Source: an uncultured bacterium
GTDB lineage: Bacteria > Patescibacteriota > Minisyncoccia > Phycocordibacterales > UBA6065
NCBI GenBank assembly: GCA_966243015.1
Contig: CBIMES010000001.1
Location: 298,076-362,075, forward strand
Length of the DNA: 64,000 nucleotides
Direction: 5' to 3'
The notes under the pieces were generated by a model, which ran no database searches, was not told where the DNA came from, and saw only the letters and a program-made list of their open reading frames with translations. Positions within the stretch are counted from its first letter, which is position 1. Each line of letters begins with the position of its first letter. This document shows positions 50,670-53,549 of the stretch, piece by piece. The position numbers were made by a program, and so were the translations under genes.

Positions 50670-53549
50670 TTACCGATTCTTGACCACGACCGAGACCATC
50701 CTGCCGGGTACGACGATGACCTTCTCGGGCTTCTCGTCCCCCACCCACTTCCTCACCTCACCGAGCGCGAGAGCGGTCTGCTCGAGAGACTCCTTCGACG
50801 CGTCCTTTGACGCCTTGAAGGTGGCGCGAACCTTGCCGTTGACCTGCACGGCGATGGTGAGCTCCTCGTCGGCAAGCTTCGACTCGTCGACGACAGGCCA
50901 CGAAGACGCATGTACAGAGCCTTCTTTTCCGAGAGACGCCCAAAGCTCCTCGGTCACATGAGGCGCGAATGGAGCAAGGAGCTGCAGAAAGGTCGCGTAC
51001 GCCGACGTCGGGATTTTCTCAGCCCTCTCAAGCTCGTTCGAGAGGATCATGAGCGACGAGACAGCGGTATTGTGTCGGATGTTCGATATATCGTCCGTGA
51101 CTTTCTTCACGGTCTTGTTGAGGAGCACCTCGGCCTCCTTGCTGAGCGCAGCGGTCTCGCCTGCCTTCGCGACTTTGGCCGAAAGCTTCCAGACGCGCTC
51201 GATGAAGCGGCGCGAACCGACCATGCCGGTCGTACTCCAGGCGATCGCCTGGTCGAACGGTCCCATGAACATCTCGTAGACGCGCATCGTGTCTGCGCCA
51301 TACGCCTCGACGATGTCGTCAGGGTTCACGACGTTGCCGAACCGCTTCGACATCTTCCTTCCGTCCTCGCCCATGATGAGACCGACAGACTGGAGCTTCT
51401 TGAACGGCTCGAGTGTCGTCACCACGCCCATGTCGTAGAGGAACTTGTGCCAGAAACGCGCGTAGATGAGGTGTCGCGTCGCGTGCTCTGCGCCGCCGAC
51501 GTAGAAGTCAACCTGGTTCCAGTACCTCTCCTCGGCAGAGCCCACGAGAGCGTCGTCGTTGCGAGGGTCCATGAAGCGGAGGTAGTACCACGAGGAACCG
51601 GCCCACTGGGGCATGGTGTTCGTCTCGCGGCGCAGGACCTTCGCGCCCTTGCCCTTGCCGAGCTTCACGTTCACCCACTTGTCAATGTTCGCGAGCGGCG
51701 ACTCGCCCGTGCCCGAAGGCTCGTACGACTCAACCTTCGGCAGGACGACCGGCAGGTCGCTCTCGGCGACGGGAACCACCTTGTCACCGTCATGCATGAT
51801 CGGGAACGGCTCGCCCCAGTAGCGCTGTCGCGAGAAGACCCAGTCCTTGAGTTTGTACTTAACCACCCACTTTCCGCCGGCGAAGTCGGTGATCCTCTTC
51901 TTTGCCTCTGACGAAAGCATATTGGTGAAGCGACCCGAATCGACGAGAACGCCCTCCTCGGTCATGGCCTTCTCGACTGGATTCGCCAGTCGGTCGAGAA
52001 TGATGTCCATCTCGGCGTGATTGAGATTGAGAGAAGCGACTTCCTTGAGGTCGAGCCAGACAAGGTCGTGAATGGCCGCCTCGGCCGCGGAGATCTGGGC
52101 CGCCGCGCTGCCCTTGAGCTCGAAGAGGAGCGTCCAAGTGTGCGCCGTGCGGTTGACGTTCTTGTGCGCCGCAAAGAATTCAGACTGAATCGGCCCCGCG
52201 ATCTGACGGACGAACTTGACGCTGTATCCGGTCTCCTCGAAGATTTCGCGCTCGGCTGCCTCGATCATGTCCTCCTCGCCCTCGACGCCGCCCGTGATGA
52301 AAGTCGTCCATGGCTGTTGCTTCCACTTGAGGCAGAGATACTTGCCAGTCTTTGGGTCAGTGACGACGCCGATGATGACCTTGCGGAAGACATTCTCCTT
52401 GCCCTCGACGTGCGGATTGCGCTGGTCGATGCGGCGCGGAATGACGACGGTCTTAATCGGAAGCTTGTATTTGGTCGCGAATTCAAAGTCACGGTCGTCA
52501 TGGGCGGGAACCGCCATAACGGCGCCGGTACCGTACTCGGCGAGCACGTAGTCAGCGACAAAGACAGGCACCTCCTCCTTGGTGACGGGATTGATCGCCT
52601 TCACACCCTGGAGCTCGACGCCGGTCTTGTCCTTCTTGGCGTCAGTTCGCTCAATCTCGGTCATCATGCGGGCATGGGCGACATACGAAAGCACCTCGTC
52701 TCGGTTCTCGAGCGAGTTGGCGTCCTTCATGAGATTAGTGACAAGAGCGTGCTCAGGGGCAACGACGACGTAGGTAACGCCGTACAGCGTGTCAGGGCGT
52801 GTGGTGAAGACCGTGAGCGACTTCACGTCACCCGCGGCGGCCGTGAGCTCAAAATCAAGCTCAGCACCCTCCGAACGGCCAATCCAATTCCTCTGAGACT
52901 CCTTGATGGACTCAGGCCAGTCGAGCGCCTCGAGATCGTTCAAAAGCCTGTCGGCGTAGTCGGTGATGCGAATCACCCACTGCCTCATCGACTTCTTCTC
53001 GACGGGTGTCGAACAGCGCTCGCACTTGCCGTCCTCCACATCCTCGTTGGCGAGGCCGGTCTTGCACGAAGGACACCAGTTAATCGGCTCGAAAGACTCG
53101 TAGGCGAGGCCCTTCTCGTACATCTTGAGGAAAGCCCACTGCGTCCACTTGTAGAACTTCGGGTCGGTGGTGTTCACCTCGCGCGACCAGTCGTAGTCAA
53201 AGCCGAGGATCTCGAGCTGCTTCTTGTAGCGCGCGACGTTCTTGGCGACGGCGACGGACGGATTCGTCTTGGTCTTGATGGCGTAGTTCTCGGCCGGCAG
53301 TCCGAACGCGTCAAAGCCCATCGGGTGAAGCACGTTCATTCCCTGCATGCGCTTCATGCGCGAGACAATGTCAGTGGCGATATAGCCCTTTGGGTGACCG
53401 ACGTGAAGGCCCTCTCCCGACGGATATGGGAACATGTCGAGGACATAGAACTTTGGCTTGTCAGACGCTGTCTGCGTCTCGTACACCTTGCTCGACTTCC
53501 ACTCCTTCTGCCACTTCTTCTCTATCTTCTTGTGATCGTACTGCTTCAT
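50670..53549 (-). CDS. leuS: Leucyl-tRNA synthetase with an inserted NUDIX-box domain
   Basis: HVGHPKGY (HIGH), KMSKRFGN (KMSKS) and a CP1 editing domain. An extra ~150-aa segment carries [23 protein letters not shown]. Confidence 0.95.
   Translation of the reverse strand: [959 protein letters not shown]

Follow-up and report, generated by a model that had tools for sequence, protein, structure and literature searches.

A predicted Nudix hydrolase domain nested within the editing domain of a Patescibacteria leucyl-tRNA synthetase, with cassette-like behaviour among relatives

Background

Can a leucyl-tRNA synthetase (LeuRS) carry a nucleotide hydrolase within its own polypeptide chain and, if so, what would such a domain be doing there? 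This question is raised by the leuS gene of an uncultured bacterium (GTDB lineage Patescibacteriota, Minisyncoccia, Phycocordibacterales, UBA6065), which lies in the 64,000-nucleotide stretch of DNA analysed here, positions 298,076 to 362,075 of the forward strand of contig CBIMES010000001.1 (GenBank assembly GCA_966243015.1), called the window in what follows. Aminoacyl-tRNA synthetases (aaRSs) are the main cellular source of alarmones of the diadenosine tetraphosphate (Ap4A) type, and to our knowledge no synthetase carries its own Nudix hydrolase. An original prediction, made from the letters of the window, held that about 150 residues with a textbook Nudix box had been inserted into this LeuRS and could clear Ap4A or mis-activated aminoacyl-adenylates in cis. 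Dinucleoside polyphosphates (ApnAs) have been described as aaRS by-products, the levels of which are controlled by Nudix hydrolases (PMC4734340). Full-text literature searches turned up no account of a LeuRS with a Nudix domain, nor one of such multi-module synthetases; the Nudix-LeuRS architecture is visible in precomputed Pfam annotations and a published interpretation of it was not found. Our comparisons of sequences indicate that the insert belongs to an undescribed family of apparently swappable hydrolase modules in or beside the tRNA synthetase genes of many Patescibacteria.

Identification of a Nudix domain in the window LeuRS

Compared with Pfam, the insert matches the NUDIX family PF00293 with E = 2.9e-13 (50.4 bits for a gathering score of 21.1; profile positions 4-125 of 134), and the protein that holds it scores 1003 bits against TIGR00396 (leuS_bact, cut-off 548), which bears out the claim of a Nudix domain inserted in a LeuRS. 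The catalytic box is an exact fit to GX5EX7REUXEEXGU, as had been said of it, and a strict regular expression for this box is satisfied by 173 of the 197 modules at the same site of related proteins.

Using an alignment of 49 related modules (20-62% identical to the window; module numbering plus 364 gives protein numbering), we built an AlphaFold2 (AF2) model of the insert (aa 365-534) with a predicted local distance difference test (pLDDT) of 92.7 and a predicted template modelling score (pTM) of 0.86. Foldseek returned 596 PDB matches to this model at E < 1e-3, and the best 50 of the 596 are all Nudix-family structures. The model has a Nudix fold in which the catalytic Glu residues are placed on the Nudix helix, and this excludes a LeuRS-specific domain that resembles the motif by chance. 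Across the 49 diverse modules E71, E74, E75, G77 and W134 are invariant, and conservation reaches 90% or more for R25, G56, G57, E62, R70, K99 and R103; in an alignment of 50 full-length relatives R389, G420, G421, E435, E438, E439, G441, K463, R467 and W498 are invariant, with E426 and R434 conserved in at least 90%. The module has a conserved basic and aromatic set, R389, K463, R467, W498 and F458/F459. From sequence and model together, the insert is predicted to be a self-contained Nudix pyrophosphohydrolase domain of ~160 residues with an intact catalytic motif.

Purifying selection acts on the insert as strongly as on the synthetase, dN/dS (ratio of non-synonymous to synonymous rates) being 0.051 for the insert and 0.043 for the rest of leuS. 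These rates were obtained with a 92%-identical orthologue (L084), from which the insert differs by 58 synonymous and 18 non-synonymous changes. The near-equal GC (0.603 in the insert and 0.591 in the rest of the gene) and GC at third codon positions (GC3; 0.816 and 0.815) rule out a recent foreign origin of the insert in this lineage.

Position of the module within the editing domain

In an alignment with the LeuRS of Thermus thermophilus, residues 1-369 of the window protein correspond to 1-362 and the match restarts at residue 521, equivalent to 369, and ~151 residues occupy the place of ~6. In the closest LeuRSs without an insert, a linker of 10 residues fills this place; one of them (P0030) reads ..[27 protein letters not shown].., and the window protein reads ..LPIKTVV[IPRRID...PVEKA][11 protein letters not shown]... 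The view that an insert of ~150 residues stands in for a short linker is therefore upheld, and window positions 51966-52439 (-) do translate as PRRIDQ...PVEKA.

The insert had been thought to lie between the CP1 editing domain and the synthetase body. Our analysis contradicts this placing: the module is nested inside CP1, in a surface loop, because the match to PF13603 (the LeuRS editing domain, 185 positions) is split, aa 220-376 covering positions 1-147 and a second stretch following the insert, and because the segment after the insert aligns to T. thermophilus residues 369-417, within the structurally defined editing domain of that enzyme (residues 224-417). By themselves, the 62 residues that follow the insert are too few to give a scorable match to the editing-domain model. 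In the full-length AF2 model (pLDDT 84.8, pTM 0.74), the ten-residue blocks spanning both junctions have pLDDT values of 84-95, so the model shows no floppy tether and the integration of the Nudix module into CP1 is predicted to be rigid. The loop in question is hypervariable even without a Nudix domain, as in P0024, which holds an unrelated filler of 46 residues there (aa ~370-440); P0047, a close insert-free relative, is missing part of the C-terminal CP1 segment.

The canonical LeuRSs of Escherichia coli (4AQ7), T. thermophilus (1H3N) and Mycoplasma mobile (3ZIU) share with the window LeuRS the core, the ZN1 and CP1 motifs, and the anticodon-binding and C-terminal domains, but have a loop of 6-16 residues where the latter has a Nudix domain of 159 residues.

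Distribution in the Patescibacteria

Relatives were counted among the top-ranked matches of each search. PF00293 is found in ~108 of the 120 LeuRSs most similar to that of the window, carriers being named as Paceibacterota, Taylorbacteria, Parcubacteria and 'Patescibacteria group', and a pattern scan in which each GTDB species was represented by one genome, built on an alignment of 12 sequences and surveying only the window's type of module, located this type in at least 189 genomes, including Taylor-, Vogel-, Kaiser-, Zambryski-, Moran-, Uhr- and Kerfeldbacteria. All 80 loci retrieved have it at the same LeuRS site. The insert is thus widely shared by relatives, a point that the original prediction had left to a survey.

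A HMMER search with the insert alone against 1.84 billion representative sequences gave 301 clusters at E <= 1e-3. With only 301 clusters, the insert belongs to a distinct and fairly small Nudix clade. LeuRS sequences are present in 108 of the best 150 of these 301 clusters.

Cassette-like behaviour of the modules

Placing the 120 LeuRSs on a hidden Markov model (HMM) made from six insert-free relatives, we found inserted modules at five discrete sites, S1 to S5, the window's being S3 (Table 1), in proteins that reach 1558 residues. Nudix modules of the window's clade occur at all five, with one to three copies per protein. Relatives with modules inserted in frame include P0007, P0016, P0029, P0035-P0037, P0044, P0068 and P0175. 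Other guests of these LeuRSs are Ser_hydrolase PF06821 (S2 and S4), HAD_2 (S5), Ham1/ITPase (E = 7.6e-52) and a module of ~130 residues without a Pfam match (P0034 aa 581-724, P0086 aa 776-908).

Clustering of 319 modules, with an arbitrary distance threshold between types, put the window's type at S3 (65 modules), S1 (26) and S2 (4) and in free-standing form (4), and a second type at S1 (41) and S3 (22) and as free-standing proteins (5). In many modules of the second type, for example P0007 aa 224-389, P0016 aa 377-544 and P0019 aa 366-531, the Arg of the box is replaced (AAxAEIxEETG or KMEIKEETG, not RE); such boxes account for most of the modules that fail the strict box pattern, and their activity may be altered or absent.

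Host and module do not follow each other. Core identity and module identity have a Spearman correlation of 0.09 over 5151 pairs, cores 74-78% identical to the window's carry three different module types at S3, and the module types differ in 280 of the 407 host pairs whose cores share more than 72% identity. The histories of module and host are decoupled, and S3 behaves as a cassette slot in which modules are often gained, lost or replaced.

Two known architectures come close to this one. The NCBIfam model NF040702 (isoleucine--tRNA ligase, N-acetyltransferase domain-containing) describes what is likewise a class Ia synthetase with a second, unrelated catalytic domain; its guest is of the GNAT family, whereas that of the window LeuRS is a Nudix domain, nested in the editing domain, cassette-like and found at several sites and in several copy numbers. 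The bifunctional NadM-Nudix architecture (mentioned in PMC7824862) joins a HIGH-motif nucleotidyltransferase to a Nudix ADP-ribose pyrophosphatase and is likewise an adenylate-forming enzyme of the HIGH family joined to a Nudix domain, which breaks down a related adenine dinucleotide. By contrast with the nested insertion in the window LeuRS, it is an end-to-end fusion of the NAD pathway with another Nudix subfamily.

Free-standing members of the clade and the link to other synthetases

Members of the clade also exist as complete free-standing proteins of ~160 residues, which include the N-terminal extension seen in the insert. Among ten free-standing copies examined, five adjoin aaRS genes (Table 1). 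P0227, a class II ProRS of 643 residues, has a Nudix domain of the clade at aa 395-521, between its anticodon-binding and ProRS-C_1 domains, with E = 1.6e-14 to the window insert (HMMER). Because of this ProRS-nested copy and of the free copies beside leuS, argS/ileS and thrS, the clade is associated with aaRSs as a class, above all with LeuRS.

Three free copies (P0271, P0247 and P0213) have no telling neighbour gene. The P0186 locus also encodes an archaeal-type DHQS, so that it may come from an archaeon, or else from a bacterium that acquired its leuS by transfer. An IleRS-like class Ia synthetase (L094:5094-8498) has a His_Phos_1 domain (E = 1.4e-30) nested at aa 523-675, and the same locus contains argS, a free Nudix gene of the clade, a second Nudix gene, and genes for dUTPase and thymidylate kinase. 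Some free-standing members, at L087:5478-6495 and in P0148 and P0231, form divergent gene pairs or are joined as tandem two-Nudix proteins, and show weak Pfam similarity of the Nudt16-like (decapping enzyme) kind.

The window also contains a stand-alone Nudix gene, which the original prediction had located at 18643..19110. The gene exists, but its end was wrongly given: it runs from a GTG start at 19143 to 18643 on the (-) strand and encodes 166 residues (Pfam NUDIX, E = 2.6e-17). Kinship between its product and the insert was considered and rejected; they are 26% identical (pairwise E = 0.002) and the stand-alone protein therefore belongs to a different Nudix clade.

Features of the host gene and its surroundings

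Solved LeuRSs in the PDB match the window protein with phmmer E = 1e-190 to 1e-202, and LeuRS crystal structures superpose on its full-length model with TMt 0.73-0.79. The enzyme is otherwise complete, as the HIGH, KMSKS, zinc-finger and editing motifs are all kept: the ZN1 four-Cys motif is present, and all these motifs, with T249, T250, R251, D253, T254 and D351 of the editing site, are invariant in the 50 full-length relatives. There is no leucine-specific domain before KMSKS in the window LeuRS; T. thermophilus residues 580-636 are without counterpart, the alignment skipping from 579 to 637 as the window protein moves from 727 to 732. The GEDG found there resembles the GKDG of M. mobile LeuRS, both replacing this domain, and is thus a known natural variant, as in M. 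mobile LeuRS (PMC3643597).

The neighbours of leuS in the window encode YchF, a DUF5671 protein, a sigma-like protein, a DUF8128 protein, YceG and MnmA, and this neighbourhood gives no functional clue. GC3 of leuS is 0.82 and the GC content of the whole window 0.556. These values are high for Patescibacteria.

Table 1. Features of the window leuS, insertion sites on the LeuRS site map, and free-standing Nudix genes of the same clade with their neighbours
Feature	Position	Strand	Residues, basis or remarks
leuS, bacterial-type LeuRS, host of the insert	50670..53549	(-)	959-residue open reading frame
HIGH signature of the synthetic site, HVGH	53394..53405	(-)	aa 49-52; sequence; invariant in the alignment of 50 relatives
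CP1 editing domain, N-terminal part	52443..52892	(-)	aa 220-369; PF13603 match
TTRPDT editing motif	52788..52805	(-)	aa 249-254; sequence
PAHDDRD with editing Asp351	52488..52508	(-)	sequence
Nested Nudix module (IPRRID...PVEKA)	51966..52442	(-)	aa 370-528; includes an N-terminal extension of ~20 residues that accompanies the module
Nudix box [23 protein letters not shown]	52224..52292	(-)	aa 420-442
CP1 editing domain, C-terminal part	51834..51965	(-)	aa 529-572; resumes after the insert; T. thermophilus alignment
SRQRYWG, after the C-terminal CP1 part	51813..51833	(-)	sequence
GEDG, directly before RKMSKR	51360..51371	(-)	aa 727-730; replaces the leucine-specific domain; T. thermophilus alignment
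KMSKS signature, KMSKR	51342..51356	(-)	aa 732-736; sequence
Site S1	HMM ~208-212		insert 165-185 or ~330 residues
Site S2	HMM ~238-243		insert ~170 residues
Site S3 (window)	HMM ~370-374		insert ~150 residues
Site S4	HMM ~436-439		insert ~130 or ~197 residues
Site S5	HMM ~486-488		insert ~210 residues
P0138 (free Nudix)			ends 2 nt upstream of a Nudix-bearing leuS
P0188 (free Nudix)			ends 2 nt upstream of an insert-free leuS, in two assemblies
P0186 (free Nudix)			starts 35 nt downstream of an archaeal-type leuS, L090:1714-5137 (NF008957, 1021 bits)
P0187 (free Nudix)			starts 12 nt after argS; upstream of an IleRS with nested His_Phos_1
P0185 (free Nudix)			ends 49 nt upstream of a gene encoding a ThrRS/AlaRS SAD domain
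P0171 (free Nudix)			follows fpg/nei by 4 nt
P0157 (free Nudix)			adjoins another Nudix gene

Possible functions of the module

We tentatively favour, as possible and short of probable, the view that the module is a tethered or co-expressed (di)nucleoside-polyphosphate hydrolase with Ap4A-type compounds as predicted substrate. Clearance of Ap4A, as first proposed, is plausible and the idea is strengthened because the clade is also found in a ProRS and beside several aaRS genes, that is, with something common to aaRSs. The module would then hydrolyse a nucleotide pyrophosphate tied to aaRS chemistry in general, the likeliest substrates being the dinucleoside polyphosphates Ap4A, Ap3A and Ap4N, which aaRSs make when ATP or another nucleoside triphosphate (NTP) attacks the aminoacyl-adenylate bound to the enzyme. 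The basic residues R389, K463 and R467 would hold the polyphosphate chain, the aromatic pair F458/F459 would stack the adenine, and the glutamates of the Nudix helix would position Mg2+ and water for an asymmetric cleavage to ATP and AMP. Tethering would supply one hydrolase per synthetase and not a precise channel, given the five or more alternative sites at which the module is found; these sites and the separate-protein form suggest that tethering or stoichiometry outweighs a defined channel, and thus argue against a precise geometry for channelling in cis. The second activity proposed, clearing of mis-activated aminoacyl-adenylates, is unlikely on chemical grounds, because an aminoacyl-adenylate is a mixed anhydride of a monophosphate and not a nucleoside diphosphate linked to another group, and because LeuRS retains its own editing site in CP1 unimpaired in sequence.

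The module was compared with the Ap4A/ApnA Nudix hydrolases of lupin (1F3Y), Aquifex (3I7U), T. thermophilus (Ndx1), Chlamydia (CT771) and Mycobacterium tuberculosis (Rv2985), and with their relative RppH. ApnA hydrolases are among its best matches by sequence profile and by fold: in the profile search the best characterised PDB matches are the Ap4A hydrolases 1F3Y and 3I7U and decapping Nudix enzymes, and the fold neighbours include the Ap6A hydrolase Ndx1, the ApnA hydrolase Rv2985, CT771 and the Aquifex Ap4A hydrolase. Module and ApnA hydrolases have in common the Nudix fold, a complete box and a small size (130-165 residues), and may also share a conserved aromatic residue ~16-17 positions downstream of the box. 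Such a residue stands at +15 to +18 in 244 of 247 modules, with Tyr in 177 of them, and the window module has Phe458-Phe459 at +16/+17; a Tyr 16-18 residues after the Nudix box is the ApnA-hydrolase signature that Dunn et al. are said to have reported in 1999. Two marks of other Nudix families are absent from the module sequence, read directly, namely the array SQPWPFPxS of NADH pyrophosphatases after the box and the NuCoA motif LLTxR(S/A)x3Rx3Gx3FPGG of CoA pyrophosphatases before it. The differences are that identity with ApnA hydrolases is just 17-25% and no family-specific model was passed, and that these enzymes are free-standing, whereas the module is nested in an aaRS with its own conserved N-terminal extension and an HKxxNR motif.

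Several further observations weigh against an Ap4A-type hydrolase. Matches to the NCBIfam RppH, NudB and MutT1 models lie far under their cut-offs, with 20.5 bits for a cut-off of 241 against the RNA pyrophosphohydrolase model NF001934 and 15.2 bits for 475 against the MutT1 model NF052459. Fold scores do not separate Nudix classes, and the closest structure is 2AZW, a MutT/nudix protein of Enterococcus faecalis from structural genomics, which is free-standing, 16-17% identical to the module, of unknown function and without substrate information. Ap4A synthesis is not specific to LeuRS, LysRS and PheRS being the strong producers and ArgRS not being known to make any, and the choice of LeuRS as main host is thus left unexplained by Ap4A. 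The LeuRS cores closest to the window's (81% identity) have no insert, and the module is therefore dispensable for LeuRS function. Finally, the ITPase, HAD and serine-hydrolase guests and the copy adjoining fpg fit general nucleotide sanitation equally well.

This last point leads to the main rival, in which the module is a generic house-cleaning enzyme (a MutT-like or non-canonical NTP pyrophosphatase), LeuRS, essential and constitutively expressed, being its carrier and the CP1 loops permissive insertion sites, so that nothing in its mechanism would connect it to aminoacylation. The Ham1/ITPase, HAD_2 and Ser_hydrolase domains hosted at other sites by related LeuRSs and the IleRS with a nested His_Phos_1 are what such a view would expect, as is the occurrence of the Nudix module at so many sites and in one to three copies, which would make geometry unimportant. 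The patchy presence among close hosts, the 8-oxoG repair context of P0171, the annotation of one free-standing relative as MutT by JGI and the presence of MutT1-type structures among the top fold matches point the same way. A carrier role does not, however, explain why half of the free copies stand beside aaRS genes, of four kinds, or the nesting in ProRS; in Patescibacteria genomes of ~700 genes this adjacency is far above chance. The MutT-specific model also fails by a wide margin. We regard the house-cleaning enzyme as a doubtful reading.

A less probable one again, and quite unlikely in our view, is an RNA 5'-end pyrophosphohydrolase or decapping enzyme (RppH-, NudC- or Dcp2-like), which would be brought to tRNA or other RNA by the synthetase and remove 5'-triphosphate, NAD or Np4N caps. 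Dcp2 and the decapping effector AvrM14 are matched in the profile search at E = 1e-8 to 1e-10, RppH structures are among the fold neighbours, the NCBIfam RppH and YtkD models are weakly matched, the tandem free-standing relatives have Nudt16-like matches, and aaRSs are the tRNA-binding platforms of the cell. All scores against RppH models are nevertheless far too low, independence of the insertion site and free-standing forms speak against positioning on a bound tRNA, and the 5' ends of mature tRNAs are monophosphates made by RNase P.

It is very improbable that the module is a non-catalytic Nudix fold acting as a ligand sensor or as a spacer that modulates CP1 movement: replacement of the box Arg (RE to AE or ME) is frequent in the second module type, but the window's type keeps the complete box, the metal-binding glutamates are invariant across the 49 modules and 50 full-length relatives, and dN/dS is 0.05. 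An artefact (chance motif, chimeric assembly or intein-like element removed after translation) is refuted by the Pfam match and the confident Nudix fold, by the silent and replacement differences of the insert in the 92%-identical orthologue, by an identical protein encoded on at least 10 contigs of independent ENA, NCBI and Logan assemblies, which therefore is no chimera, and by the junctions KTVV|IPRR and VEKA|MTEE, neither of which has intein terminal residues (N-terminal Cys/Ser; C-terminal His-Asn followed by Cys/Ser/Thr).

Conclusion

Nudix hydrolases and aaRSs with accessory domains were already known, and what is unusual here is the evolutionary behaviour. The cassette-like turnover, in which hosts with more than 72% identity have differing types at one site and a single type recurs at differing sites, is an unusual mode of protein evolution. 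For the Patescibacteria, whose physiology is poorly understood, the arrangement is a concrete trait that is widespread among them. The nested Nudix-LeuRS, together with its free-standing and ProRS siblings, offers a direct experimental handle on the question of whether dinucleotide or alarmone production is coupled in cells to removal. That the CP1 editing domain tolerates a folded enzyme of 160 residues at several loops is useful for aaRS engineering and for questions of domain nesting.

A wider view, which we consider unlikely, is that the LeuRS of Patescibacteria, and to a lesser extent ProRS and IleRS, are docking platforms for mobile nucleotide-hydrolase cassettes that would be exchanged in frame between sites and lineages and would jointly police adenylated nucleotides at their source, as a layer of quality control or immunity on the translation apparatus. 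Its repertoire would comprise the Nudix clade, ITPase, HAD, serine hydrolase and histidine phosphatase, and its targets could be Ap4N alarmones and caps, damaged NTPs, or natural toxins that mimic aminoacyl-adenylates and act against aaRSs. If this view is true, the Nudix module of the window would be one element of an unrecognised modular layer in these ultra-small bacteria.

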